From: Candidatus Omnitrophota bacterium
GTDB taxonomy: Bacteria; Omnitrophota; Gorgyraeia; JACQQV01
DNA: 64,000 bases
Direction of reading: 5' to 3'
Assembly: GCA_016206785.1 (NCBI GenBank)
Contig: JACQQV010000046.1
Span: 19,512-83,511 of the forward strand
Shown here: positions 29,481 through 43,732 of the stretch, in pieces
Numbering within the stretch: position 1 is the stretch's first letter
How the letters are laid out: each line of letters begins with the position of its first letter
Made by a program: the position numbers and the translations under genes
Notes under the pieces: generated by a model
The model's input: only the letters and a program-made list of their open reading frames with translations
What the model was told of the DNA's origin: nothing
The model's database searches: none

Positions 29481-31976
29481 CTAAGTCACGACGAGATTGA
29501 CTAACTTTTTCGGGACAATCACCCACTGTTTGACCGTTTTCCCGTCAAGCCATTTTCTGATCGATTCATCGTTAAGAATTTTTTCCTTGAGGAGCTCATC
29601 GGAAAGATCGACAGCGACATTCAGTTTCGAACGGACCTTCCCGTTCACCTGAATGACAATGGTCACTTCCTCCACCGCAATCGCGTTGGGATCATAGGAA
29701 GGCCAAGAAGCGCGAAAGACGCTTCCCTTCCGCCCGAGGGAAGACCAGATCTCTTCAGCCAGATGAGGGATGAAAGGGGCAAGGAGAAGGACAAGGAGCT
29801 CAAAGGCTTCACGAAGGAGGACCCGTTCGTTCTCTTGGAGAGTTTTTTCTTCTTCACCCAAATACCGATAGATTTCATTCACGAGTTCCATCATGGAGGC
29901 GATCGCCGTGTTGAAGCGGAAAGAGCCCTCCATGTCTTCTGTCACCTTTTTAAGGGTGAGGTGAAGTTTTCTCCGAAGAGAGACCCCTTCTTCATTCAAA
30001 CCCGAAACGGCCGAGGAGACCGGAACTAAGGCTCCGCGCTTTGAAAGAAGCTGTGAAAGGCGCCAGACTCGATTCAGGAATCGAAAGGCGCCTTCGACAC
30101 CCCGATCGCTCCATTCGGCGTCCTTCTCGGGAGGACCGATAAAGAGGGTGTAGAGCCGAACGGTATCTGCACCAAAGCGCTCGATGAGTTCATCGGGGCT
30201 CACGACATTTCCCTTTGACTTCGACATCTTAAATCCGTCTTTGATGATCATCCCCTGAGTAAAGAGCCGTTCAAAGGGTTCATCGAAACCGACATATCCC
30301 AAGTCATGAAGGACCTTCACGATAAAGCGGGAGTAAAGAAGGTGAAGAATTGCATGTTCTACGCCTCCGATATATTGATCGACGGGAAGCCAACGATTGA
30401 CGAGCGCCGTGTCAAAGGGTCGCTCGGCATTCTGCGGAGAAAGGTAGCGGAGAAAGTACCAACTGGAGTCGACAAAGGTATCCATCGTATCAAATTCACG
30501 TTTCCCCTCCCCTTTGCATTTGGGGCAACGGGTTTTGACGAATTCGGGAGCGTCCTTTAAAGGAGATTCGCCGGTCGGTCTGAAACGAACATTTTCCGGT
30601 AGGAGAACTGGGAGATCCTTCTCAGGAACCGGAACAATCCCGCAGGCATTACAGTAGAGGATCGGAATGGGGGCCCCCCAATAGCGCTGCCGTGAAATAA
30701 GCCAGTCCCGGAGCCGATAGGCAGAGGTGCGTCGGCCCATCCCTTTTTTCTCCATGAAATGGGCGATCTTCTCCATCGCCTCCCGGTTTCCGAGGCCGTT
30801 GAAAAGTTCAGAATGGACCATGATCCCTTCCTCTATATAGGCTTCTTTCATGGTGAGCGGGTTGAGCGGGTTTTCCGGTTGGTCGATGACCACTTCGATG
30901 GGAAGACCGTACTTCTTGGCAAATTCAAAATCCCTTTGGTCATGGGCGGGAACCGCCATGACCGCCCCTGTTCCATATTCAAGAAGAACATAATTTGCAA
31001 CCCAGAGCGGAATTTTTCTGCCATTTACAGGATTCACGACATGCCAGCCGGTAAAAACCCCCTCCTTCTTGACTTCAAGGGCAGAGCGTTCTTCCTGGGG
31101 TTGCCGCAAGATCCGTTCCACAAACTGTTGAATCTCACCTTTATTTTTGGAATCACGAATCAGTTCTTGAAGGCGGGGATGCTCAGGGGCAAGCACCATA
31201 TAGGTTGCTCCGTAGATCGTGTCCACGCGTGTTGTAAAGCAGGTCAGCGGCTCTCCTTCGCCGTCTACCGGGAAATGGATTGCAACTCCCTCGTTCTTCC
31301 CGATCCAATTTCGTTGCATCACGCGAACCCTCTCGGGCCAATGGGTGAGTTGAGCGATATCCTTGAGGAGCCGTTCTGCATAATCGGTGATTTTGAAGAA
31401 CCATTGTTCAAGAAATTTTTGAATGACCGGTGTTTCGCACCGCTCACAGGCCCCGTTTACAACCTGTTCATTCGCAAGGACGGTCTGACAGGAGGAGCAC
31501 CAGTTGACGGCCGCCCGTTTTTTGTAGGCGAGACTTTTTTCATAGAGTTTCAAGAAAATCCACTGGCTCCACTTGTAATAATCGGGAAAGCAGGCGGTCA
31601 CTTCCCTCCGCCAGTCGTAACAGACCCCCCATTGCCGGAGCTGCCGCTTCATGGTCGCTATGTTGTTTAAGGTCGAGATCTTCGGATGGAGCCCTCCTTT
31701 GATCGCAGCGTTTTCTGCCGGAAGACCAAAGGCATCCCATCCTATCGGGGCCAGGACGTTAAAGCCGCGCATCAGTTTGTAGCGAGCAACGACGTCTCCA
31801 ATGATGTAGTTCCGACCATGTCCCACATGGAGGGTAGCAGAGGGATAGGGGAACATGACAAGGCAGTAATATTTCGTTTTATCCGTCCGGGAGGTATCGA
31901 CCTCAAAAAGTCTCTCTTTTTCCCAGAAAGATTGCCATTTCGGTTCGATCGTCCTAAAAGGATAGATTTCTTCCAT
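29481..31976 (-). CDS. leuS: leucine--tRNA ligase
   Basis: The HIGH motif (PYPSATLHVGHGRNY) and the KMSKS motif (KMSKSKGN) are present. The start is set at MEEIYPFRTIEPKWQSFW, matching E. coli MQEQYRPEEIESKVQLHW. The longer track ORF would overlap tRNA-Ala. Confidence 0.95.
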   Translation of the reverse strand: MEEIYPFRTIEPKWQSFWEKERLFEVDTSRTDKTKYYCLVMFPYPSATLHVGHGRNYIIGDVVARYKLMRGFNVLAPIGWDAFGLPAENAAIKGGLHPKISTLNNIATMKRQLRQWGVCYDWRREVTACFPDYYKWSQWIFLKLYEKSLAYKKRAAVNWCSSCQTVLANEQVVNGACERCETPVIQKFLEQWFFKITDYAERLLKDIAQLTHWPERVRVMQRNWIGKNEGVAIHFPVDGEGEPLTCFTTRVDTIYGATYMVLAPEHPRLQELIRDSKNKGEIQQFVERILRQPQEERSALEVKKEGVFTGWHVVNPVNGRKIPLWVANYVLLEYGTGAVMAVPAHDQRDFEFAKKYGLPIEVVIDQPENPLNPLTMKEAYIEEGIMVHSELFNGLGNREAMEKIAHFMEKKGMGRRTSAYRLRDWLISRQRYWGAPIPILYCNACGIVPVPEKDLPVLLPENVRFRPTGESPLKDAPEFVKTRCPKCKGEGKREFDTMDTFVDSSWYFLRYLSPQNAERPFDTALVNRWLPVDQYIGGVEHAILHLLYSRFIVKVLHDLGYVGFDEPFERLFTQGMIIKDGFKMSKSKGNVVSPDELIERFGADTVRLYTLFIGPPEKDAEWSDRGVEGAFRFLNRVWRLSQLLSKRGALVPVSSAVSGLNEEGVSLRRKLHLTLKKVTEDMEGSFRFNTAIASMMELVNEIYRYLGEEEKTLQENERVLLREAFELLVLLLAPFIPHLAEEIWSSLGRKGSVFRASWPSYDPNAIAVEEVTIVIQVNGKVRSKLNVAVDLSDELLKEKILNDESIRKWLDGKTVKQWVIVPKKLVNLVVT

Positions 31977-32017
31977 AGTTGTAAATGACGTCATCTTTTC
32001 GTATAATCGGACACCAT

Positions 32018-32091
32018 GGGGCTGTGGTGAAGCGGGATCACACGACAATGGCATTGTCGGGTCACGGGTTCGATTCCCGTCAGCTCCACCA
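32018..32091 (+). tRNA. tRNA-Ala (anticodon GGC)
   Basis: Hand-folded cloverleaf. The acceptor GGGGCTG/CAGCTCC carries the G3:U70 alanine identity pair. The anticodon stem is CGACA/TGTCG with loop ATGGCAT. The T-loop is TTCGATT and CCA is encoded. Confidence 0.85.
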
Positions 32092-32156
32092 TCCTAATAC
32101 TTTACTCATCATAACGGAAGAGAGTGCTAAAAGTCAATTTGGAGGTGAAAAGAAAA

Positions 32157-32176
32157 GGAGCCGATTAATCGGCTCC
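32157..32176. terminator. bidirectional rho-independent terminator hairpin GGAGCCGA-ttaa-TCGGCTCC, flanked by A- and T-runs
   Basis: It is followed by TTTTCTTT on the plus strand and by TTTTCTTTT on the minus strand. Confidence 0.7.
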
Positions 32177-32306
32177 TTTTCTTTAGAATACACTCGAAAA
32201 ACCGCTATCTTCTTTTTCTTTTCTTGGCGGCTTTTTTCTTTCTCTTTTTCGCCAAAGGTATCAGACCCCCTTCCTTAAGCGAACTTTTTACCAATCCATT
32301 GACACT

Positions 32307-32335
32307 ATATTACACGAAAAATCCCATTTTGTCAA
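32307..32335 (-). promoter_or_regulatory. near-consensus sigma70 promoter on the minus strand (TTGACA-N17-TAATAT)
   Basis: Reverse complement: TTGACAaaatgggatttttcgtgTAATAT. It drives a ~150-nt transcript ending at the 32157..32176 terminator. Confidence 0.55.
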
Positions 32336-32353
32336 GGGTCGTTGTGGAGTATC

Positions 32354-32362
32354 TGGTATAAT
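32354..32362 (+). promoter_or_regulatory. extended -10 promoter element TGGTATAAT upstream of tRNA-Leu
   Basis: A perfect TATAAT with an upstream TG. There is no clear -35. It lies 150 nt upstream of tRNA-Leu. Confidence 0.4.
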
Positions 32363-32515
32363 ATAAGGAAGGGGGACGACCGCAATTTGCTGAATCTCCC
32401 TTAAAGACAAATTGCGCCATTAAGGGGGAAACGCTGTTTCCCCCTTATGGGGAGCGAAGGCCGAGCAGCGACATTACGGATTGTCTCTATTTGGTCGCGC
32501 GGAGGCCGAAGCGAC

Positions 32516-32602
32516 GCCGAAGTGGCGGAATGGGTATACGCGCCGGTCTCAAAAACCGGTGGGGGCAACCCTGTGAGAGTTCGACCCTCTCCTTCGGCAC
32601 CA
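32516..32602 (+). tRNA. tRNA-Leu (anticodon CAA), type II with long variable arm
   Basis: The acceptor is GCCGAAG/CTTCGGC. The anticodon stem is CCGGT/ACCGG with loop CTCAAAA. A 15-nt variable arm, T-arm GAGAG-TTCGACC-CTCTC and an encoded CCA are present. Confidence 0.85.
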
Positions 32603-32627
32603 CTTTAGTGTACGGTTTACGGGTAGT

Positions 32628-35600
32628 TTAGACAGAATTGAGGTAGGTTTCGTACGCTTTGCGGTACTCCGAACCAATGGGGATGGGTGCAGCCTGAATC
32701 ATATTTCCTTCCATTTTTAGAAATTGAGCCAGTTCCCCCAAATTCCCGCGTGCCTGCCAAGTGTGCTGAACCACAGAGACTTCTGCCGCAACATTCACAA
32801 GAAAAGAGGCAAGATTTAAGGCGTTAGGAGTTGCCGAATCGGATGACCAATTAAAAGAAGGATCAAAAACGACCATTCTGACCTTCGACTGAATTTTCGG
32901 CTTTGCGCCCGGCGTTTTAGATTCCACAAGAGCCAGTCCCGTTTGCATTCGAGGATTCGGCATTGATACAACACCGGAACCTTTCCATAGATTTATATTG
33001 TCACGGGAGGCAATAACCACGACATCCGGACTTTCAAGCAAAGGAAAATCAATATTTTGATCTGCAAATTTTTCCCAAAGTAAATCTTCTAATGTCTTGG
33101 CATAATATCTCGACCGAATGGCGCTGCCATACCACATGCTTGCCTCTTCCTTCATCTCGACGAGAATTTGCTCTCGTGTTTTTCCATATGCGCGGAGGCG
33201 GTATTCAAGGTTTTCAGGTGAAATTCGCAAAAATTCTGCAATCTCCTCGTCGGTCCCTTTTATTCTCAGTTTTTCAAACAGCATACCTTGAGTGACAATG
33301 ACGCTGAATTGCTCGGGGCGCAGAGCGTGTTTCGCCAAATAAGCGTCAATTTCTCCGGAAGTCACCGAGGAATCGTCGATAATCAGGGTATTCTTAAAAA
33401 GACTCTTTCGATTGTCTCGAGGATTTCCGGTAGCGTCCGCCAGATGGTCTAAGGCAAGAGAAAAACTCTCCCCCAGATCTTCCCTTAATAAAGATGAATG
33501 GTAGAGGTGAAATTTGGGTTTGGCATTTCTTTTGAGCTCTTCGCTCGGCGTGCGATCCGCATATTTTCCTTGTGCCATGAGCCACTCTGGATCTCGAGCC
33601 ACATACCGCTCGGCACCGTCCCGAACCGCAATCGTCTCCGGCTGATGGACGATGAGGACTCGGTTGTCGTTCCATTCTCGATGGCTCTTTACTTCGGCCT
33701 CCTTCGACAATTGGTCGTTTCGGCGGTTGAGAATCGCGTTTGCCGGTTCACCGCGCCCCGCCCATCCGGCAATGTTCTCGGCAAGCCACTGCCGTTTCCC
33801 TTTCAGGTCGTACGCGACACCATCATCTCCAAGAAGGACCGTACTTTGATCTCCCAAAGGAAGCTCTCCTTCCAGAAACCATGCCTCCTCCCGTAAATAG
33901 GGTCTCATCCGCCGATCCCCATAGGAATTGGTAAATCTCCAGTAAGGACCGACCCTCGCTGCCCGCCCGAAGTCCTGACTCCCTTCATGGTAAACCGCTC
34001 CCTTTGCAAGGGCAATGTTTCTTCCCTCTTCATCCAAAGCCGGGTTCTGTTCGGGAGTGGTGAGTCGAATTTCTCCCTGATCCGCAATCATGAGCCACGC
34101 ATCCCCTCTTCCGAATCCGGAGACCCTTCGTTCATCCCCTACCTTCCGGATAAAGGCAACGGCGACGAGTGCGCCCGAATCCATCTTTTCGACAAGAGCG
34201 AGAAGGGCGCGGTCTGTTGTCTCATAAACGTCGCGGAAGTTTTCTCCCTTTTCACGAAGGGCATTTTCAAAAATGGAAGGGAGTTTCCGCTTGATCAGGT
34301 GCGCCGCCTCTTCGTCATAATGCCCATCGATCACAGCGATCAAATCTCCCTCAATGTTTCCTACCCTCACCGGATGAACAAGGGTGCGGCTCTCTTGGCC
34401 TTCCCGTCCCGTGCCGATATCGGCCACATAACTGACTTTTCCGCCCGAGACGGCCTCTTTCTCCCCCGCTTCGTACTCCACATTCCAGCTGTACCGACCG
34501 TCCTTAAAGAGCCAGAAACCGTTCACAAACTTGTGGTTTTCCATCCGCCACCGGCCGTCGAGATTATCCTCAAAAATATCGATTCCCCGTTTCAGTTGTT
34601 CTTCCGAATGGAACGGGTATCCCAAAACAGGGTGGTGGGTCTGTCCCGCCCGGACCATCGTCAGTTCTTCGTGTACCTGCTCGAGCGCTTCTTGAATTTT
34701 GGCCTCCATCAAAAGATCCACATCCAAAGGGTTTTTCGTTGCACTCTTGGTTTTACTGAGAATGTGCCGCAGCACCAGATCGGGCCGGAGGAGAACCCCT
34801 CCGATGATATCGTTTTGAGGACCGGGTCCGAGTTTTTGGGTGAAGTGAATCAGATGCTCCCCTGCTTTGACCCGCTGTGCCACGATACTTCCAAAGCCGA
34901 GGTACGTTTCTTCCCCATCTTCCACTTCAAAAATGGTGTTCGTTCCGACAAAGGTCGTCTCGAGAATAATTCTCCCGGAGGAATCCGGTCGGTCCGGCAC
35001 CACCGTGGAGCCGCCCCCCCAGTTGGGGGCATTCGCCACCTCTATGGTTTTTCCTTTCGCCCTGAACGTGATCGGCCGTGCGACGACATTCAAAGCCCTT
35101 CCGGCAAGATGGTGGTTTGTGTAAAGTCCCGAGACGAAAACGTTCACATGGAGGGAACCGATGCCCCGATTAACCCCCGGCGTCGAGTCGTCGAAATGGC
35201 TCGAAAGGACCGTCGCATAGGGCTCGAGCAGATGGTATTTTCCGATATTGCTGAGTTTCGCCAGAAAGAGACTCCCCTCTGTTTCGTCTCCGATAAAAGT
35301 ATTTTGAACGCGGCCCATGCTCAAGCGAACCCCATTTCCGATGTCTGAGATGTTTCCCTCCGTTGAATCGATGAACATCCGGACAAGACGTGCTCTTCTT
35401 CCGATTCTCGCGTATTGAATGCCGGATCCCCAAACGAAAGTCTCTTCACCAACGGTGGTATCGATCAGATGGGAACCGAAAATTTTCGCTCCCTTCCGGA
35501 TAACCGTCTTCCCTTCCAAAATCACGCCCGGGCCGATAACGGCCCCTTCCTCAATTTCAACCTGATTGCCGATGACGGCGGTCGGGTCAATATCGGCAAT

Positions 35601-38600
35601 GGCACCGAATTTCTCCAGAGGATTGACCGTTTCTTCGCCCCCCCTCGGCTCAAATGCTTCCGGAAGATGCTCTGCCGTCAGAATCGGTTCATAGTCGGAC
35701 ACCCGGTCGCGGGGGATCTTCGGGTCGTTTTCAGGAAGTTCTTTGAAAAGGGTCTGGCGGTAATCCGTTTCGGAAACGCCCTCTAAGGCGGTCCTCTTTA
35801 AATCGAGCGCTTCATGGGTCCATAGGCCATTCTCAAATTTCCAGCGGGGGTCTTTCTCTCCATTCCGATATCGCCACGCACCGCTATCGATATGGAGCCG
35901 GTATGCGTCCCGCCATTTTTCAAGAAGGGCGATCCGTTCGTGGTCCTGGTCATCCCTGAATTTTGCCTTCTCCTCTGCAAGCTCCGCTTCCACCAACGCC
36001 TTCCCGGTCTCAAGCATCTCCACCGGAAAATCATCACCCGTTGACTTTTTCTCGTCGGGCAGGGCATCCACCATCTCCTGCATCAGGGTAAAGATTGTAT
36101 CGGGACTGTAGATAAAAAGGAAAGGAACAGAAACCGCTTTCCGGCTCAAACCGAACTTTGCCGCACCCGGAAGTGCCATTCCCCAATCATCCCACGCCGG
36201 TTTCCCCCGAACAGGAGAACCGATCAGGGAGAAGGGCGTCGCATGCGTGAGATTCCGGTTTGCCATGAGCGTCAGGGGATCGGCAGAAGGTTGTCCTCCC
36301 CCAAGGGCGATCCACCGTAAAAACGGACTCAGGGTGGAGAGAGGGTCTACTATAAGATAGCCGTGGGCACTCGATTCTGAGCCGTCGATTCCTCTGATCC
36401 GGACCGGCGGAAAAAGCGCCTTCGGGTCCCGTGGAACAATCCGAATCATCTCCTCTTCCTTAAATTCTTCATAAAGACCGTGCGTGTGCGCTTTAAGCGG
36501 ATTCAGGGTGCCGAGGTAACTTGAATCGACTACGTTCCGTCCCATATGGGAGATCGCGGGGAGAGAAAAACTCTTTTCGACTTTAAGTTTCCGTGTATCT
36601 GGATCAAACCGGAGAGAGACGATTTCATTCGTATGGAGCGCCGAATCAATAAAAGCCTGCTTGTCCGCGTAGAACTTGTAACCGAGCCACGCCTCGCTCA
36701 CTTCAAGCGGAAGCTCGGGCGTCCCTTTCAGGGTTATTTCATGCTCCGTATGCACCAGCGTCATTTTGATATGCCGCAGCCGGTTGTTCCGTCCGATGTC
36801 GCTGTTTTGATAGACGCCGCTTTCGATTTCCGTTCCCCGGCCGACAGTCGTGTTGACCACTCTTGCGCCACTGATCCGGGCTTCCGGCCCGACCCGGGTC
36901 TGGTTCCCGGAAACCGTATAGACCCTTTTTCCGGAAAGATCTTTCCGGTCGAAGGACCAGTCGTCAAAGTTACCGGTTGTCTCCAAAACAGTATCGGATA
37001 AGACGGCGTTGTCCCCAACCAATGCTCCTGAAACAAAACTTGATTCAACAGTTGCCTGAACACCGATCTCCACGGCGTGGTCCTTTGTCGCTTGGATGTA
37101 ACTTCTTCCGATAATCCGGGCGCCCGGAAGAATTGCGACAAACCCTTCCCTCACATCGAAGACCACTTGATCGCCGACGATAGCGGCCCGTTCCAGACCG
37201 ATGATATTCCGCGGATCCCCGAGAATCTTATACCCTCCATCCCGGGCGGTGGCAAATTTTTGGTCTTCGGTCTTTGGTCTTTGGTCTATCTTTTCTCCCC
37301 CATCCCGGGCGGTTGTGGGGCCCGAGGAGCCGCGACGCCTACGAAGTGCGAGTTCATTCTTAAGAGTTTCTATTTCTCTCTCCAACAAAAATTTTGAAGA
37401 GGGTGAGGCGGTTTCGATCTGTGAAGTTAACTGGGCAATTTTGTCTTGCAGTTCCTGGGCTGTTTCTTTCCCTCTTCCTCCATCCTTGGCATGGGTTCTT
37501 TCAGTATCGTCCTCGGCGGCGCCAAAGGGTTCGATGCGAATCCCTTCAACGGACCAATCCTCACCAAATCGCGGCTTGGACCCTTTCCCTTCGACGGTCA
37601 CAACTTCCCTTGCGATGGTTGCAAGTGCCTTTGAACGCAAGCGGGCCGCTTTGACTCTCGCCTTCAGTTCTTCTGTAGGACCGGTGATCTCTGTCGCCGT
37701 TTTAAAAGGGAAGAAACCATTGAAATTTTCGCCTTCAGGAAACGTGAGATAAACGAGTTGCAACTCTATCCCCTTCTCCTCTTTTGAGAAATCTTTCAAT
37801 ATCTTCATCGATTCCTCATAAACCGCCCTATGACGCGGATGGGGATCATTGGGATCGTTTAACAAAATGATGATTTTGCCGCCCCGGCGGTACATCCCCA
37901 AAAAAGTTTTGAGGTTGCTTCTCAGTTGCGTCGCAGCCTGCCGGACGATTTCCTCATCAGGCATTTCCGGGTTTTGGCGAAGGATATCCGTGCCGATAAG
38001 GTTTGGGGGATCGGTTCCCAACCATCGTGCTGCATTTTTTTCTTCTTTTTCTCTTATTTCAGCCTTCCTCAACCGCTTTGTGGACAAGGGGATCGTTTCA
38101 TCCTCGTCTATCTCTGGCATATAAGCCCCGGATCCTGTCGATAGAATCCAGCTCTGAACATCCATTCCATATTTCTTAGACAGATACACCAGGGCTCCTC
38201 CCATGATCGCAATATCATCCGGATGCGCCGCAATCACGAGGAGGGGAACCTTTCCTCTGGAAAAGGTCTTGAACGACTCACGCCCCCACACCATTTCTCT
38301 GGATGAAAAAAGAGGCTTACCCCCTTTGAGAGTCACGGTGACATAGATTTCAGCATGAGGATGCTTTAACCCAAACTCCAGGGCATGCGCTGTGTCCGCA
38401 TTTCTCGCCATCAAATGATAGGGGAGGCGGCTATGCTGGCTGAGGTGCGCCTTGATCGCTTTCTCTTTGATCGCCGCGACCTCGTTGGTGAAAGGAACGA
38501 CCAGATTAAACCGACCTTGAACCTCAAGAGATTTGTAAAAAATGAAAATGGCCGACCGCCCCTGCGACCCCAGGACTTGTTCAACGTTGTCCCGTAGGAT

Positions 38601-40673
38601 CAGGTCATGCAAAGGTAAAAATACAAAATCGGGACGAAACTTGCGCAGATTTTTCCGAAGGGCCTTGAGGGCCTCCTCGTTCCTGTCCACAGTCATCCGG
38701 ATGATGGTGTTTCCTCTCTGTTCAAAAGCACCGATAAGGTTTCCTGCATAGAAATCAGGATCCCATGCTTTCAACTGGACAACAGCCACTTTTTTATCTT
38801 GAGGAATCGAGAATTGATGAACCCCTTCCACCTCCCGATCACCCAGAAGCACCTTCAGGTTTTCTTCCAACATCCTTCTCACACGACTTACGGTTAATTC
38901 CTTCTCCCCTCCCTCTTTGGCATACTTCTGTCCCAGCTGTCTCCCCTGCCCATCCTGGGCTGCTCCTCTTTCTAAATCACCCTTCAAGAAGCGCGGGACA
39001 CCCCGTTCGAGGGCGGGGAGCTGGCGAAGGTTTTCATCGGCAGGCGTGGCAGGCTTTGCCTTTTCTTTCAGGATCTCGTGATAAAGTTCAAGGTTTGAAG
39101 GCTGCGTAATTTTAGGAGCGATGACCATGTAGGAATAGTTCTGCTCCCTTAGAAGTCTCGTGATCTGAGCCGTATGAAAACCTCCTGCAATAAGGACCAC
39201 CACATCGACATGTTCCCCATTCATCTTTGAGATGGCATTTTCCACGAGGGCATTATCCCGCTTCATCCCGGTTTCATAAAAAGACTCCAGAAGGGCGAGA
39301 TGATTGTCAATGGGAGAGGTGTCTTCCGGGAAAGAAAGGGTGAGTTTATACTGCTGCATTTTCCCGACGAGAAATTTCTTCCACCCCTTAATGGGGAAGC
39401 CTTGACGATCTTGCTGATACGCATGAAGGTCTTCGGGAGAGAGATTTAATTCCAGAAAATTGAGGAGGATGTCCAGTCTATCGGAGATTTCAGAAAGGGT
39501 TCGTTCGTCATTCGATGTATACAAACGCCCCTTGATCTCTTTTTCAAGGATCTTTCCCTCTCGAAAAAGTTCTACATGGTCGCGGTCTGCATACAGAAGG
39601 ATATAGTCGATATAGAGGTCAAGATCCTGATGGCTTCCTTTGGCCGGGTCTTTCTGCTTCAGGATCTCTTTTAAGAAACCGTAATACTCTTTGGGCCCCG
39701 CTTCATTGAGTTTGTATTTGAGCCCCTTCTCTGCCAAGGAGGTGAGTTCTCCTTTTGAAAGGACCTGCGTCAGTTTTCCAATCAAGGCCTGATGCTGGCC
39801 GTCTACCTTCTGGAAGTCGATTTTCTTCTCTAAGACCGAGGCCTCGAGGAAATTCTTGAAGTTGGGATAGCGGGAAAGATCGACCTTTTCGCTAAGGGCC
39901 ACTCCTCCTAAATACTGGTAGTACTCAACCGCCTGCCCCTTCCCTTCCTCATACGCATATTTCTCACGCTCAAGTTCCTTGAGCCTCGGAGAAAAGAGGT
40001 TCACTTTGAGTGTCTCGACGATCGCCTTGACCGACCGTGCCACCTTAAGGGCTTTTTCTTTAAAGGCATCCACCTTAAAGAAAATATCGAGATTTTTGTC
40101 ATAGAGCTCTTCATCTTCAATCCCCCAGAGGGTGATCGGGTTATCCGATGTGATATCGAGATACTCCTCCCCTGAGATCTTTCCCGCCTTGAGGTATTTC
40201 TCAGCCACTTCAAGGCGCTTTTCTTTACTCGCTTCGGACCTTAGGAACGAAAGACTGGTATCTCCGCTTCCTCCTTCCACCAAGATGAGGCGGAGTCCGT
40301 TTTGTTTGATCAGTTTGTCGAGGATGTTGGCGAGGTTCTTTTGGGCTTCGTAATGAACATGGACATCTTGGATATGGATGACAAGGGGTTTTGGATTTCC
40401 CTGGTAGGTTTCGGAGATGCGGCCATATTCAGGGGGGACCTGAACCGCCTGGACCAGTGTTTTGGGGCGATCCCCCAGAAGACTTAAAGGATCGAGGGCG
40501 GGCTTGGGTGAACCTCTGTTTTCTTCCGGCTTAAATTCTAAATCTTGGGTCTCTCGTTCTTGCTCTTTCTTTTCTTCAACGGACCGGAAGATGCTCCGCT
40601 GGGCGTGGGAGGAAGGAACGATTGAAAAAAGAAAGCATGCCCCTAAGAAAAGGAGGAGGAGTTTCCGTGCCAT
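32628..40673 (-). CDS. giant (2681 aa) secreted multi-domain protein. Domains in order: N-terminal domain paralogous to the 41741..43327 product, a PIG-L/LmbE-like deacetylase, a coiled-coil linker, two left-handed beta-helix (hexapeptide) regions, a PP2C-like phosphatase and an unassigned C-terminal region.
   Basis: This is an uninterrupted 8-kb ORF. The signal peptide is MARKLLLLFLGACFLFSIVPSSHAQ. The PIG-L motifs are VIAAHPDD...NDPHPRH (about 37830..38260). The hexapeptide runs are IGNQVEIEEGAVIGPGVILEGKTVIRKGAKIF and IVGDQVVFDVREGFVAILPGARIIG. The PP2C-like motifs are IDGHYDEEAAHL, FGRGDAWLMIAD and LLGDDGVAYDL (about 33790..34560). The N-terminal 570 aa matches the paralogue (IHIQDVHVHYEAQKNLANIL against IHIQDAHVHYEAQKNLASIL). 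Confidence 0.8.
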   Translation of the reverse strand: MARKLLLLFLGACFLFSIVPSSHAQRSIFRSVEEKKEQERETQDLEFKPEENRGSPKPALDPLSLLGDRPKTLVQAVQVPPEYGRISETYQGNPKPLVIHIQDVHVHYEAQKNLANILDKLIKQNGLRLILVEGGSGDTSLSFLRSEASKEKRLEVAEKYLKAGKISGEEYLDITSDNPITLWGIEDEELYDKNLDIFFKVDAFKEKALKVARSVKAIVETLKVNLFSPRLKELEREKYAYEEGKGQAVEYYQYLGGVALSEKVDLSRYPNFKNFLEASVLEKKIDFQKVDGQHQALIGKLTQVLSKGELTSLAEKGLKYKLNEAGPKEYYGFLKEILKQKDPAKGSHQDLDLYIDYILLYADRDHVELFREGKILEKEIKGRLYTSNDERTLSEISDRLDILLNFLELNLSPEDLHAYQQDRQGFPIKGWKKFLVGKMQQYKLTLSFPEDTSPIDNHLALLESFYETGMKRDNALVENAISKMNGEHVDVVVLIAGGFHTAQITRLLREQNYSYMVIAPKITQPSNLELYHEILKEKAKPATPADENLRQLPALERGVPRFLKGDLERGAAQDGQGRQLGQKYAKEGGEKELTVSRVRRMLEENLKVLLGDREVEGVHQFSIPQDKKVAVVQLKAWDPDFYAGNLIGAFEQRGNTIIRMTVDRNEEALKALRKNLRKFRPDFVFLPLHDLILRDNVEQVLGSQGRSAIFIFYKSLEVQGRFNLVVPFTNEVAAIKEKAIKAHLSQHSRLPYHLMARNADTAHALEFGLKHPHAEIYVTVTLKGGKPLFSSREMVWGRESFKTFSRGKVPLLVIAAHPDDIAIMGGALVYLSKKYGMDVQSWILSTGSGAYMPEIDEDETIPLSTKRLRKAEIREKEEKNAARWLGTDPPNLIGTDILRQNPEMPDEEIVRQAATQLRSNLKTFLGMYRRGGKIIILLNDPNDPHPRHRAVYEESMKILKDFSKEEKGIELQLVYLTFPEGENFNGFFPFKTATEITGPTEELKARVKAARLRSKALATIAREVVTVEGKGSKPRFGEDWSVEGIRIEPFGAAEDDTERTHAKDGGRGKETAQELQDKIAQLTSQIETASPSSKFLLEREIETLKNELALRRRRGSSGPTTARDGGEKIDQRPKTEDQKFATARDGGYKILGDPRNIIGLERAAIVGDQVVFDVREGFVAILPGARIIGRSYIQATKDHAVEIGVQATVESSFVSGALVGDNAVLSDTVLETTGNFDDWSFDRKDLSGKRVYTVSGNQTRVGPEARISGARVVNTTVGRGTEIESGVYQNSDIGRNNRLRHIKMTLVHTEHEITLKGTPELPLEVSEAWLGYKFYADKQAFIDSALHTNEIVSLRFDPDTRKLKVEKSFSLPAISHMGRNVVDSSYLGTLNPLKAHTHGLYEEFKEEEMIRIVPRDPKALFPPVRIRGIDGSESSAHGYLIVDPLSTLSPFLRWIALGGGQPSADPLTLMANRNLTHATPFSLIGSPVRGKPAWDDWGMALPGAAKFGLSRKAVSVPFLFIYSPDTIFTLMQEMVDALPDEKKSTGDDFPVEMLETGKALVEAELAEEKAKFRDDQDHERIALLEKWRDAYRLHIDSGAWRYRNGEKDPRWKFENGLWTHEALDLKRTALEGVSETDYRQTLFKELPENDPKIPRDRVSDYEPILTAEHLPEAFEPRGGEETVNPLEKFGAIADIDPTAVIGNQVEIEEGAVIGPGVILEGKTVIRKGAKIFGSHLIDTTVGEETFVWGSGIQYARIGRRARLVRMFIDSTEGNISDIGNGVRLSMGRVQNTFIGDETEGSLFLAKLSNIGKYHLLEPYATVLSSHFDDSTPGVNRGIGSLHVNVFVSGLYTNHHLAGRALNVVARPITFRAKGKTIEVANAPNWGGGSTVVPDRPDSSGRIILETTFVGTNTIFEVEDGEETYLGFGSIVAQRVKAGEHLIHFTQKLGPGPQNDIIGGVLLRPDLVLRHILSKTKSATKNPLDVDLLMEAKIQEALEQVHEELTMVRAGQTHHPVLGYPFHSEEQLKRGIDIFEDNLDGRWRMENHKFVNGFWLFKDGRYSWNVEYEAGEKEAVSGGKVSYVADIGTGREGQESRTLVHPVRVGNIEGDLIAVIDGHYDEEAAHLIKRKLPSIFENALREKGENFRDVYETTDRALLALVEKMDSGALVAVAFIRKVGDERRVSGFGRGDAWLMIADQGEIRLTTPEQNPALDEEGRNIALAKGAVYHEGSQDFGRAARVGPYWRFTNSYGDRRMRPYLREEAWFLEGELPLGDQSTVLLGDDGVAYDLKGKRQWLAENIAGWAGRGEPANAILNRRNDQLSKEAEVKSHREWNDNRVLIVHQPETIAVRDGAERYVARDPEWLMAQGKYADRTPSEELKRNAKPKFHLYHSSLLREDLGESFSLALDHLADATGNPRDNRKSLFKNTLIIDDSSVTSGEIDAYLAKHALRPEQFSVIVTQGMLFEKLRIKGTDEEIAEFLRISPENLEYRLRAYGKTREQILVEMKEEASMWYGSAIRSRYYAKTLEDLLWEKFADQNIDFPLLESPDVVVIASRDNINLWKGSGVVSMPNPRMQTGLALVESKTPGAKPKIQSKVRMVVFDPSFNWSSDSATPNALNLASFLVNVAAEVSVVQHTWQARGNLGELAQFLKMEGNMIQAAPIPIGSEYRKAYETYLNSV

Positions 40674-40704
40674 GTTTTCTCACCACCCATCCTTCTGGAG
40701 AACC

Positions 40705-41718
40705 TTACAAGCCAGCCAAGGTGTTCCGGAGTTCGAGAAGCGTGTTCCTCGCTTGTTCAGAGACATTGATCGAAGGATTGACAAAGTCAGGACCCTCTTC
40801 AAGTTTGGCTAACAGCGCTTTCTCCAGGGCATCGACACCGGCTAGCTCTTCTTTAAAAGGAAGATCGAAGACAAACGCGACCAGCGATGTTATCGTTTTA
40901 AATGCTTCAGCCACCTCTTTCCTCGCAAAAATCTTTGTCAGTGGATGACCACCCGTGCGTTCTTTGACATAGTCATGGGTGCCGCCGGCATAACTCAAAA
41001 GTTCCGGAGGAACGACGATTCCAAAGTCATCCGGGTTCAGATCTACTTCTTCCCCCGTGTGGCGACTGGCGAAGACGTTAAGCGCCTGAATCGCATCGTC
41101 AATATTCTGGGAATCGATCCCAGCGAGGAGTGGAGTTTCTTCCCTCATCGCGTAAGGAAGGAGAACGGATACGAGACCACTTCCCACCTTTCCAAAGGTA
41201 GGATTCCGCCGAATATGCCGCCAATAGTTGACATAGGCATCCGGATTATAGGCAAAATAGGCGAGGTCAAATCCAACGACCTCTGGGGCCTCCTGGGCTT
41301 GCACCTGATTCAGAATAATCCTTGAAAGGGGGCCTTTGAAGGTAGGAAAAATCTCCTGACCAACGGAAAGCCTCTCGATTTCTGTATCAATGGCAGCCAC
41401 TGCTCCTTCAAGATGCGTTGCGAGTCCCACATTTCCTGCTTCTCTGCGAATTGGGAGCTCCTCTGCCAGCTTTCTCTTCTCCCTTTCAAGTAAAGCGATC
41501 TTGACTGCAAGATTCACTCCTCTTTCTCCACCATCTGTGGAGGTGAGGTCATCCTTCAATCCCTTCATCATGCCGGGGTTCTCTTCTGCCATCGAGGGAC
41601 GAAACGTCTCCTGCGTGAGGGCATACCCCCAGGCGGGGAGAATCGCCGTCAGCGTAAAGCATACGCCGATAAAAAATGACGCTCTTCTTTGAATTCCTTT
41701 CTGTGCGTTCTCTTTCAT
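40705..41718 (-). CDS. secreted protein of unknown function (337 aa), middle gene of the giant-protein operon
   Basis: The N-terminal signal/anchor is RRASFFIGVCFTLTAILPAWGYA. It lies 22 nt after the upstream gene and 31 nt before the giant gene. No motif was recognised. Confidence 0.5.
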   Translation of the reverse strand: MKENAQKGIQRRASFFIGVCFTLTAILPAWGYALTQETFRPSMAEENPGMMKGLKDDLTSTDGGERGVNLAVKIALLEREKRKLAEELPIRREAGNVGLATHLEGAVAAIDTEIERLSVGQEIFPTFKGPLSRIILNQVQAQEAPEVVGFDLAYFAYNPDAYVNYWRHIRRNPTFGKVGSGLVSVLLPYAMREETPLLAGIDSQNIDDAIQALNVFASRHTGEEVDLNPDDFGIVVPPELLSYAGGTHDYVKERTGGHPLTKIFARKEVAEAFKTITSLVAFVFDLPFKEELAGVDALEKALLAKLEEGPDFVNPSINVSEQARNTLLELRNTLAGL

Positions 41719-41740
41719 CTAAAACCCTCCTTTAAGGTTT

Positions 41741-43327
41741 TTATTCAACCAATCCTTCCGATCTTTGTCTGACCACAGAGTAGTAAAGTTCCGGATTCCC
41801 GGCTTCCGTAATCCTCGGGGAGATCACGATGTAAGAAGTCTTTTTATCCTTGAGAATCTGGGTAAGCCCCGGCGTATGAAATCCACCCGTGATGAGTACG
41901 GCAAACCGGACATGCTCCTTGTCCATCTGTTTGAGAGAATTCTCGACAAAGGCGATATCACGCTCCTGTGCGACGTCGTAAAAATGATCCAATGCCTTCA
42001 TATGGCTGTCGATCTCCGCGGAGCCTTCCGGAAGGGATACGGCGAGACGGTGTTCAACGCTTTTTATCTCAAGGAAAGGTAGAAAGGTTTTTACGGAAAA
42101 GCGAAGGCGGTTCTCGTGATACGTGGTATAGTCATCCGGTGAGATTTTTAGCTGAAGAAGATTGGATAAGAGTTTCAGGTGTTTTGCGATAGAGACCAGT
42201 TGCCGTTCATCCTCGGAGCGGACAAGTGTCTCACGAATCGCCTCTTCCAAGCGGTCCCCCTCTTTGAAAAGTTCCGAGTGATGAATGTCGCTATAGAGGG
42301 AAAGATAAGTGACGTACTTTTCAAGATTCTGCGCCTCTTTGAGGGATACCTCCTTTTGAGTCGCCAAGGTCTTGAGCGCTTCATAATACTCTTTCTGAGA
42401 AAGGGTTCCTTCTTTAAAGGCGAGACTTTGATCGACAAAGGATTCCATCTCGAGGTCACTGAGCTTTTCCGTCAAGGTCTTCATGATCGCGTCCCGCTCA
42501 TCATCCACCTTCTCAAAATCGATCTCTTTCTCGATAGCGGAAGCCTTGAGGAGCCGCTCGACATTCGGAGTCCCTTCCGGCGATTTAAGGGAAGCGAGAT
42601 ATTGGTAATACTCCACCAGTTCCATCTGTTCGGCATCATACGCCTCGCGCTTCCTTTCCAGCTCCCGGAGTGAAGGGTTGTAGATATTCTGTTTTAAGGT
42701 CTCAACGACCCGACGGATCCCCTCGACATTCTCGAGGGCGTTCTTCTTAAACTTCTCCACTTCCATAAAGGTGCGGAAATTCTCTTTGTAAAGTTCGGGG
42801 TCTTCGATCCCCTGCCGGATCATCGGATAATCGCTCACCAGTTCCAGATATTCGTCTCCAGACAAGAGTCCTTTCTTAAGATACCGTTCCGCCACCTCCT
42901 CGCGCGCCTTTTTCGAAGCGAGTTTTCGAAAAGAGGAGAGTTCTCCCCGGCGCTTTCCCCCTTCGACGAGAACCAGTTTCAATTGATTATTTCGGATGAG
43001 AGACTCCAGAATTGAGGCGAGATTTTTCTGCGCTTCATAGTGAACATGGGCATCCTGAATATGGATGATCGTTTTGTCCGAGTTTCCCTCATAGGCATCG
43101 ATGATTCTTCCATGCTGTTCGGGAATCTGGAGGGCGTTAAAAAGGACGGGTCTTGGGAGATGAAGCGCCGAAGGAGGAGCTTCAACCTTTGCAACCTCTT
43201 CAGTCTTCTTGACCTGTTGAAAAATGCTTCGTGAAGGTGGCTCCGCCCATACGGTCGATACAATCCCTAACAAGACGATAAGTAATTTTTGAATCACATG
43301 GCGGGTCCTGTCTCGGCGCTTTCCCAT
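41741..43327 (-). CDS. secreted protein (~530 aa) paralogous to the N-terminal domain of the giant protein; function unknown
   Basis: The start was trimmed to MGKRRDRTRHVIQKLLIVLLGIVSTVWA (signal peptide). It is collinear with giant-protein residues ~60-570. Shared blocks are IHIQDAHVHYEAQKNLASIL, LVLVEGG and VLITGGFHTPGLTQIL (against VVLIAGGFHTAQITRLL). Confidence 0.6.
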   Translation of the reverse strand: MGKRRDRTRHVIQKLLIVLLGIVSTVWAEPPSRSIFQQVKKTEEVAKVEAPPSALHLPRPVLFNALQIPEQHGRIIDAYEGNSDKTIIHIQDAHVHYEAQKNLASILESLIRNNQLKLVLVEGGKRRGELSSFRKLASKKAREEVAERYLKKGLLSGDEYLELVSDYPMIRQGIEDPELYKENFRTFMEVEKFKKNALENVEGIRRVVETLKQNIYNPSLRELERKREAYDAEQMELVEYYQYLASLKSPEGTPNVERLLKASAIEKEIDFEKVDDERDAIMKTLTEKLSDLEMESFVDQSLAFKEGTLSQKEYYEALKTLATQKEVSLKEAQNLEKYVTYLSLYSDIHHSELFKEGDRLEEAIRETLVRSEDERQLVSIAKHLKLLSNLLQLKISPDDYTTYHENRLRFSVKTFLPFLEIKSVEHRLAVSLPEGSAEIDSHMKALDHFYDVAQERDIAFVENSLKQMDKEHVRFAVLITGGFHTPGLTQILKDKKTSYIVISPRITEAGNPELYYSVVRQRSEGLVE

Positions 43328-43732
43328 TCCTTCTCGCTCCACCACTCCCCCAGTGGGGCGGACGGAAAGTGCTGTGGCCCCTTCCGCTCGTCGGAATGGG
43401 AGCCCTTGCGCCTCGCCACCCGCCATCAGCATCCTATTTTCTCTTTCCTCTATTCTATAGTTCTCTCTCATTTTTTTCACGAAGAGGGTCGCGAGGTGGG
43501 TTTAGGTTGGGAAGGATGGGGGTCCAGGCCCAAACCCTATCCCACCTGCGCGTCCCAAGTGTTTATAAAAGTTCTAAAGAAAGTGGGTAAAAAAATAACC
43601 CCCGATCCTGTGACAAGTATATCATTAGGAAGAGGGATTGTCAAGGGTTATAGGAGCTATCTAAATTTTATGTAACTATAATGTTTACAATATATTAGTT
43701 TAAACTAAAATCAACATTTTGCTTCGACTAAC

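Follow-up and report, generated by a model that had tools for sequence, protein, structure and literature searches.

A hydrolase-type head domain with exchangeable cargo in Omnitrophota: a three-gene locus for a possible exported, polyprotein-like system

The genome of a Candidatus Omnitrophota bacterium (GenBank assembly GCA_016206785.1) contains, within a 64,000-nucleotide stretch of contig JACQQV010000046.1 (positions 19,512 to 83,511; this whole stretch is the window, and its first letter is position 1), three closely spaced genes on the minus strand. Gene 1 (41741..43327) encodes a free-standing protein of 528 residues, gene 2 (40705..41718) a tagged protein of 337 residues, and gene 3 (32628..40673) a giant of 2681 residues. 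The domain that gene 1 encodes on its own and that opens the giant is called the head here; the sequences that go with it, whether fused behind it or encoded beside it, are called its cargo. By fold and catalytic motif, the head is a hydrolase of the EreA/ChaN/Tiki/TraB superfamily that belongs to none of its described families. We consider that the locus may be one instance of an Omnitrophota-wide head-and-cargo system, which would be exported, polyprotein-like and matured by the head hydrolase; our estimate of the probability of this reading lies a little below even, at about 0.45. Features are on the minus strand of the window unless stated otherwise.

It was proposed in a first-pass annotation, made from the sequence alone, that the ~570 N-terminal residues of the giant form an unassigned domain which is encoded a second time by gene 1. 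The duplication is borne out: gene 1 aligns with residues 3-540 of the giant at 42% identity over 538 residues (E 2e-126), and it matches the hidden Markov model of the head domain with E 2.9e-197. The domain is, on the other hand, assignable, to the Tiki/TraB/Ere-superfamily hydrolases. Structure comparison finds in the head, a domain of ~460 residues (giant residues ~75-540; 39054..40451), an alpha/beta core, a parallel beta-sheet flanked by helices, which is the core fold of the TIKI, TraB-PrgY, Ere and ChaN proteins, including RRSP and HopBA1. The structural matches are two Bcr135/136-type proteins (2rad, score 9.8; 2qgm, 9.0), a TraB family protein (8bqs_DQ, 9.7), HopBA1 (5t09, 9.5), EreC (6xcq, 9.1), ChaN (2g5g, 8.8), RRSP (5w6l, 7.6) and PMT (2ebf, 7.1). 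The candidate catalytic residues are D103, H105, E133, R472 and the G497-G498-F499-H500 segment, so arranged that an acidic residue stands two positions before the first histidine (D103-x-H105), the glutamate follows that histidine by 28 residues, the arginine is conserved and the second histidine lies in a GxxH context (GGFH500). All of these are shared with the superfamily, the match being one of sequence register. The 2His/2Glu motif of the superfamily is represented by E3900, H3902, E3930 and H4030 in RRSP and by H85 and E113 in Bcr135, and the histidine-to-glutamate spacing of the head is the same as that of H3902/E3930 and H85/E113 (PMC6254334). The catalytic residues of the head are conserved in 304-308 of 310 relatives. 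Because the 2His/2acid motif of the superfamily is reproduced and so widely conserved, the head is, as judged from its sequence, very probably an active hydrolase.

Scans of the whole proteins with Pfam and NCBIfam gave no family match for the head, and a comparison with the PDB by sequence gave nothing significant. The sole curated superfamily profile to register at all was PF04187 (ChaN), with E 0.21 over the GGFH region. Since no curated member profile (TraB_PrgY_gumN, Cofac_haem_bdg/ChaN, Erythro_esteras) matches, the head is regarded as a new family within the superfamily. It differs from the other members in an all-helical insertion of ~300 residues (188-487 in the giant), which is specific to the head family, and in its constant N-terminal place behind a signal peptide. 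It differs also in its partners, long series of metabolic enzymes to which it is either fused or adjacent, an architecture seen in none of the superfamily members described so far.

The family is large. Clustered at 50% identity, the proteins collected by the head profile form 9,977 clusters, of which 6,818 score E <= 1e-30; they are 0.5-5.6 thousand residues long. At least 511 head loci occur in species-representative genomes, almost all of them metagenome-assembled genomes (MAGs) of Omnitrophota. Residues ~75-540 are all that the giant has in common with more than 100 distant homologues, and the shared part is always at their own N-terminus. The payloads found behind it include phosphoglucomutase (PGM), phosphofructokinase (PFK), phosphoglucose isomerase (PGI), phosphoglycerate kinase (PGK), triosephosphate isomerase (TPI), glyceraldehyde-3-phosphate dehydrogenase (GAPDH), transaldolase, fructose-1,6-bisphosphatase (FBPase), glycogen synthase, enzymes that use phosphoenolpyruvate (PEP), Lon, SecA, UbiB, kinases and others. 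The head is the defining, phylum-wide element. Which enzymes go with it as payload is interchangeable: at the same locus, orthologues of the giant have lost the PIG-L module or gained one of phosphoglucomutase.

The relationship between heads and cargo was counted in the neighbourhoods of the 79 best genomic loci, which have 54 free heads and 23 fused heads. Most often, 0-60 nt separate a free head from the start of the next gene, whose product is a protein of 600-3300 residues with a signal-peptide-like N-terminus. These proteins carry a short sequence, [LF]R in a D-x-L-R-P-x-[SA]-A context (the LRP tag), 5-23 residues past the hydrophobic core: it is present in 34 of 37, as against 16% of control windows (p ~1e-23), and in several cargos it abuts the predicted cleavage site (AWA, followed directly by LRP). 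The tag is restricted to the N-termini of stand-alone cargo and, by eye, to the closest orthologues. Fifteen of the post-head proteins were scanned with Pfam; they are mostly PGK, PGK+TIM, PFK, PFK+aldolase+GAPDH, FBPase, FBPase+aldolase, PEP-utilising enzymes and DeoC aldolase. Tagged enzymes of glycolysis or gluconeogenesis with signal-peptide-like starts follow free heads at loci L011, L018, L021, L023, L024, L027, L032, L041, L044 and L074. At four other loci (L013, L015, L017, L033), the gene directly after the free head encodes a leaderless GlmS (609 residues, MCGIIGYIG...) and not a tagged cargo; this adjacency may or may not be a meaningful link to amino-sugar metabolism. In a single case (L008, 9034-9840), a prepilin peptidase gene (Peptidase_A24) lies directly upstream of a free head and tagged PGK pair, which may be coincidental.

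Among the open reading frames of the window, the tag pattern occurs exactly once, as ETFRPSMA in gene 2 (residues 37-44; nt 41587-41610), just past the signal peptide. Behind it come a DGG (residues 62-64; nt 41527-41535), a hairpin of helices and, over residues ~125-337, a conserved alpha/beta domain. Gene 2 had been described as encoding a small secreted protein; its start is indeed signal-peptide-like, and to this must be added that the protein is a tagged cargo and not an unrelated companion. In the genome that carries the orthologue P0002, the domains of genes 1 and 2 are found in one protein (P0125, 848 residues). Given the tag in gene 2 and the fusion of both domains in P0125, we read genes 1 and 2 as a split head-cargo pair, and gene 3 as a fused head-cargo chain. 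The product of gene 2 has no homology to any part of the giant. Its structure model is poor, with a predicted local distance difference test (pLDDT) score of 54, and this poor-confidence model gave no meaningful match in Foldseek (all E > 0.02).

In the giant and its orthologues, the modules are separated by short seams of the form [A/S/T][K/R/E/Q]-DG[G/A], also written [AK][KR]DG[GA] for this clade. Seam 1 of the giant is YAKEGG (residues 584-589; 38907..38924) and seam 2 is HAKDGG (1061-1066; 37476..37493). Beyond seam 2 there is a helical spacer (1067-1120, with weak coiled-coil-type matches only) and then two TARDGG seams (spacer and seams together, 37233..37475), one of which follows the spacer (1121-1126) while the other precedes the next module (1142-1147). 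Seam 5, AVRDGA (2349-2354; 33612..33629), is kept in P0002-P0005. DGG is found 17 times in P0001-P0005, where 5 would be expected, and most of the breakpoints of homology between the orthologues are no more than 6 residues from a DG[GA] seam. Thus what is missing from P0004 is precisely the PIG-L module, the stretch from seam 1, where the deletion starts, to seam 2; seam 2 is a homology breakpoint in P0002, P0003, P0004 and P0005; P0003 has two extra modules, one of them a phosphoglucomutase, inserted between DGG sites; the spacer between seams 2 and 4 is replaced in P0002; and P0005 diverges past seam 2 to rejoin 2 residues from a DGG. The unit formed by DGG, hairpin and DGG in the spacer of the giant is found also in the small proteins of the operon family, which have 1-3 DG[GA] each after the signal peptide, often flanking a helical hairpin of ~60 residues.

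DGG is specific to the clade of the window and some others. In the distant giants the most enriched 4-mer is GARL (62 observed, 12.6 expected), and the recurrent motifs differ between lineages: GAR[LM]A in P0043, P0024, P0038, P0042 and P0067, RSE[LV]R in P0103, P0117, P0097 and P0110, RTSP in P0013 and DLGMxxDGGE in P0007. They recur every few hundred residues, with unrelated flanks and outside Pfam domains. In four proteins with GARLA, all 35 GAR[LM]A motifs stand clear of the Pfam domains, in many cases at a distance of 14-50 residues from the edge of one.

The giant begins with a signal-peptide-like segment (residues 1-24, MARK-LLLLFLGACFLFSIV-PSSHA, followed by Q; 40602..40673), and contains no other hydrophobic segment. 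All three products of the operon start in this manner, as had been claimed, with a basic n-region, a hydrophobic core of 13-15 residues and a c-region of small residues; they are called signal-peptide-like on the basis of sequence. The first-pass annotation had remarked that the giant joins information for export with enzyme types that are normally cytoplasmic, and so it does. Module 1 (590-1060; 37494..38906) consists of a degenerate Rossmann-like half (AWDPDF at 636) and a deacetylase of the PIG-L/LmbE type, the latter confirmed by Pfam PF02585 at 57.5-62 bits (cutoff 28.2) over residues 812-957, with AHPDD at 816 and HPRH at 945. Two left-handed beta-helix (LbH) blocks had been proposed to follow. 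Module 2B (1681-2068; 34470..35633), with a beta-helix of the hexapeptide acyltransferase type and a helical region, scores 25.4 with Hexapep, under the cutoff of 27; it matches GlmU, LpxA and LpxD profiles (E 5e-7 to 1e-3) over 60-100 residues, and among PDB sequences it matched only LpxA and LpxD, the LpxA structures with E 6e-5. Module 2A (1148-1680; 35634..37232), a beta-helix with a helical and Trp-rich region, has a weak GlmU-type match and is supported through its paralogy to 2B (27% identity, E 5e-7).

The PP2C-like module (2069-2348; 33630..34469) has DGH at 2116, DDG at 2283 and DN at 2336. The window copy reaches 14.4 bits with PF00481, short of the cutoff of 20.3, and the orthologous segment of P0003 reaches 57.4 bits; the match is weak for the window copy itself. 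Nothing significant was found when this region was compared with the PDB by sequence. The C-terminal module (2355-2681; 32631..33611), whose C-terminus Y..YLN[SK]V is conserved, has no match in Pfam and none among PDB sequences; the idea that it might be common to the whole family was rejected, as jackhmmer found it only in P0001-P0004. PIG-L/LmbE, hexapeptide and PP2C proteins are, in short, recognisable relatives of the cargo modules, which differ from them in being parts of a single signal-peptide-bearing chain, in the scores below curated cutoffs of the LbH and PP2C modules, and in the replacement of ED by ES in the PP2C-like module. PADLOC, Pfam and NCBIfam gave no match to an annotated adhesin, toxin or defence family. 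The suggestion that the giant is a glycan- or protein-modifying machine aimed at the surface or at prey is possible.

How these parts might work together is a matter of interpretation. Gene structure, the fold and catalytic conservation of the head, the size and taxonomy of the family, adjacency and fusion, the statistics of tag and seams, and the identities of the modules are direct observations; export, proteolysis, the identity of the cutting enzyme and its substrates are what we infer. In the scheme that we favour, all three products would be exported by Sec, and the head hydrolase would be a maturation peptidase, which would cut the giant in cis and, in trans, the tagged cargo encoded by gene 2, the cleavage sites being the tag and the seams or points close to them. 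Freed in this way as separate extracytoplasmic enzymes would be the deacetylase, both beta-helix modules of acyltransferase-like type, the PP2C-like and C-terminal modules and, in an orthologue, PGM; their targets would be amino-sugar glycans, in the envelope or on cells of prey or a host. Work at membranes, outside the cytoplasm, is established for Tiki, PrgY/TraB and ChaN, and many members of the superfamily are placed there. Some members trim or cut proteins: Tiki trims the N-termini of Wnt, and RRSP is a site-specific peptidase acting on Ras (PMC6254334). A wider claim can be framed, in which a phylum-wide export-and-maturation system, with a Tiki-like head peptidase processing LRP-tagged precursors and polyproteins at lineage-specific seams, would place enzymes of glycolysis, gluconeogenesis and amino-sugar metabolism outside the cytoplasm; one possible purpose would be to work on, or to harvest energy or sugars from, the contents or surface of prey or host. 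We regard the claim in this wide form as doubtful.

It should be noted that several observations weigh against maturation by the head and against export. The intact catalytic set of the head need not be that of a peptidase, because the superfamily also holds esterases (Ere) and non-enzymes (ChaN, PMT C1). In the AlphaFold2 (AF2) model the segment after the head is not docked into it, and residues 541-570 have pLDDT below 60. A helical hairpin often comes after DGG, which might be a structural cap. As a family-wide motif, DGG had to be rejected, with 77 observed and 94 expected in 120 giants, and a strict test of exact recurrent 3- and 4-mers was positive for a motif in only 26 of 210 giants (~12%), so that seam motifs are not demonstrated for most members of the family. 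The idea that the [LF]R tag stands directly after fused heads throughout the family was likewise rejected (34%, as against 31% of control windows). Many of the cargo enzymes depend on ATP, acetyl-CoA or NAD(P), none of which is present beyond the cytoplasm, and for this reason export is questionable or an unusual destination would be needed. In the PP2C-like module of the window, motif I (around residue 2095) reads ES instead of ED, so that one metal-binding Asp is lost while DGH, DG..D and DN are kept; from its sequence, this module is possibly inactive.

Some of these points would be accommodated if the giant were exported and remained in one piece as a surface or periplasmic scaffold, whose several enzymes would modify the envelope or prey, with a head that is an esterase or amidase for a non-protein substrate, like the Ere enzymes, seams that are hinges or helix caps, and an LRP tag that is a sorting or docking signal. 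The closest structural matches of the head include esterases (EreC, Bcr135/136), the helical hairpin repeatedly follows DGG, the AF2 model has no docking of substrate to protease, and peptides of a giant Omnitrophota protein have been reported on attached cells, in work cited in PMC10066038. Yet the motifs are very short, have unrelated flanks and differ between lineages, and so are more suggestive of sites of recognition than of structural parts; the genes with which free heads are paired are specifically those for tagged cargo; and the fission and fusion of head and cargo show that their covalent linkage is dispensable. We think the intact scaffold improbable, while treating it as a serious competitor. 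Alternatively, the N-terminal segment might be an uncleaved anchor, with head and cargo tethering enzymes of central metabolism and nucleotide-sugar metabolism to the cytoplasmic face of the membrane. This would suit a cargo that consists mainly of ATP- or cofactor-dependent cytoplasmic enzymes (PGK, PFK, TIM, GAPDH, FBPase, PEP-utilisers, PGM), which may be the working glycolytic enzymes of these genomes, and a 2026 preprint favours a cytoplasmic-face reading for the metabolic modules of giants that have transmembrane (TM) segments only (10.64898/2026.06.07.730766). Positively charged n-regions followed by A-x-A-like sites are, however, the canonical layout of a Sec signal peptide, with the C-terminal part outside; the tag lies against the predicted cleavage site in several cargos; and the characterised Tiki, PrgY and ChaN relatives are extracytoplasmic. 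A metabolon of this kind seems to us distinctly unlikely. That the giant is a misassembled or decaying reading frame with chance motif matches has a negligible probability: an identical 2681-residue protein is present in an independent Logan assembly and four syntenic orthologues are intact, so that the giant is not an assembly artefact, and profile searches support the domains.

It can also be asked whether the giant is a multi-effector toxin, whose modules would be set free within a cell of prey or host, with its supply of ATP and acetyl-CoA, and would rewire or drain the metabolism of that cell. MARTX toxins, as generally known, are secreted giants in which an array of enzymatic modules varies and recombines, with a hydrolase of their own and short sites between the modules, and in these respects the giant resembles them; RRSP, a peptidase of the Tiki fold, is itself a MARTX effector, and Omnitrophota have been proposed to be predatory or host-dependent (PMC10066038). 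MARTX toxins are the best analogy for how the giant may work, processing being a proposal in the present case. Membership of the MARTX toxins was nevertheless rejected, because all three of their defining features are absent: the Pfam and NCBIfam scans of the giant gave no RtxA or haemolysin-type repeat families and no match to Peptidase_C80, the only candidate hydrolase being the N-terminal Tiki-like head, and there are no type I secretion genes among the neighbours of the locus. The hydrolase of the giant differs from that of MARTX in being N-terminal and of another fold, and its payload consists of central-metabolic and amino-sugar enzymes, not of toxins. Against delivery of effectors in general there are, further, the absence of a translocation region, the housekeeping type of the metabolic cargo, with no recognisable toxins, and the chromosomal, syntenic position of the locus among housekeeping genes. 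Taking these together, we give effector delivery little credence, and continue to prefer the exported system with maturation by the head.

The combination of enzymes in the giant is not wholly unprecedented, since large multi-enzyme proteins of Omnitrophota have already been reported (West-Roberts et al. 2023, bioRxiv 10.1101/2023.11.21.568195; 10.64898/2026.06.07.730766; PMC10066038), and in the same sources the extracytoplasmic prediction for glycolytic domains has been remarked on. The giants of the Archaeovorin type come from the same phylum and have domains of the PGM, TPI, PGI, FBPase, aldolase and pyruvate, phosphate dikinase (PPDK) types in parts predicted to be extracytoplasmic (10.1101/2023.11.21.568195). 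A feature of this kind is present here, in the PIG-L, LbH and PP2C modules behind the signal-peptide-like segment of the giant and in the PGM, PFK, PGI and PGK of its relatives. Archaeovorins are, in contrast, 10-50 times longer and have dozens of transmembrane helices, whereas the giant of the window has 2681 residues and a single N-terminal hydrophobic segment; it was rejected as an Archaeovorin on size and topology. A physical tie exists nonetheless in two distant Omnitrophota genomes, in which the head-cargo system adjoins giants of ‘Archaeovorin’ size. At L006 (1-9684, 10001-21378) and L007 (1-9073, 10001-15803), a free head directly follows a giant gene of 31,973 or 28,668 residues, and the free heads directly precede signal-peptide-bearing FBPase (1033 residues) and PPDK-like (2159 and 1414 residues) proteins.

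The cleavage points of the Omnitrophota giants have been stated to be unknown (10.1101/2023.11.21.568195), and peptidase domains of the C39 and S8 types have been invoked for these proteins (10.1101/2023.11.21.568195; 10.64898/2026.06.07.730766). These two reports make no mention of motifs, linkers, a Tiki/TraB-like head, an LRP tag or seams, and a literature search gave no paper tying Omnitrophota to Tiki or to polyproteins. Head, tag and seams are thus three features that appear not to have been described before and that may prove general. Omnitrophota are known for the puzzle posed by their large and giant proteins, and for this puzzle the present locus offers handles: a head with named catalytic residues, a short N-terminal tag on the cargo, seams at the borders of modules, and natural pairs in split and fused form. 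If the head does mature the cargo, this would be a new bacterial logic of polyproteins and export covering some ten thousand protein clusters, and where central metabolism runs in ultra-small, host-dependent bacteria would become a question; if the cargo stays in the cytoplasm, standard predictors would be misreading the signal-peptide-like segments of a whole phylum. In either case, the annotation of Omnitrophota genomes has to change.

The three genes make up a compact unit of one orientation, bounded upstream by a strong promoter and downstream by a convergent tRNA-Leu. The tight spacing described earlier is real, with intergenic gaps of 22 nt between genes 1 and 2 and 31 nt between gene 2 and the giant. 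Gene 2 has a Shine-Dalgarno sequence, AGGAGG, 8 nt upstream of its start, and a GGTGAG-like one precedes the giant. For gene 1, the length of 579 residues given in the first-pass annotation is that of the maximal GTG-started reading frame, which reaches 43480; the end coordinate given with it, 43327, is an ATG from which the protein has 528 residues. The ATG has GGAG 9 nt upstream, and the N-terminus that it yields, MGKRRDRTRHVIQKLLIVLLGIVSTVWA, is signal-peptide-like and agrees with those of the orthologues.

Upstream, the operon is limited by an intergenic region of 400 nt after accA, which contains a near-consensus promoter of the sigma-70 type (TTGACA-17-TG-TATACT; 43616..43644) with 11 of 12 consensus positions and an extended -10; it is kept in all orthologous loci. 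The DNA between accA and gene 1 (43328-43732, minus strand) is much better conserved than the flanking genes in five orthologous loci. Within the ~290-nt 5' leader there is a conserved hairpin (43483..43558), with a minimum free energy (MFE) of -46.5 kcal/mol (z = -3.1), and the 45-nt block that folds into this long hairpin, GGTGGGATAGGGyTTGGGCCTGGACCCCCATCCTTCCCAACCT, is invariant across 5 loci. The hairpin has no match to an Rfam family, and the leader element occurs only in this clade; from its sequence, the hairpin is a candidate cis-regulatory RNA of the operon.

The arrangement recurs elsewhere: the unit is syntenic in five related genomes, and the order shared between AccA and LeuRS is a free head, one or two small proteins and a giant (L001-L005, L009). 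The product of gene 2 is 100% identical to protein HY590_07030 of a ‘Candidatus Omnitrophica bacterium’ MAG. In the window, the 3' end of the operon is bounded by the convergent tRNA-Leu(CAA) (32516..32602, plus strand); the downstream neighbours are the housekeeping genes for LeuRS, ComEA and ComEC, and those upstream encode AccA, a YkuD transpeptidase, PAP2, a PilT-like ATPase, MnmE, a Mur ligase and PurH. In L001 (20404-20772), L002 (16824-17195) and L003 (10405-10776), a small gene of cyclophilin-like type (PF04126) comes directly after the giant; the equivalent position in the window, 32100-32627, is occupied by tRNA-Leu and tRNA-Ala only. The maximal LeuRS reading frame (29481-32054, minus strand, 857 residues) shares its first 37 nt with the tRNA-Ala(GGC) (32018-32091, plus strand); the true start of LeuRS probably lies further downstream, because the orthologous LeuRS genes encode shorter proteins, of 830-834 residues.

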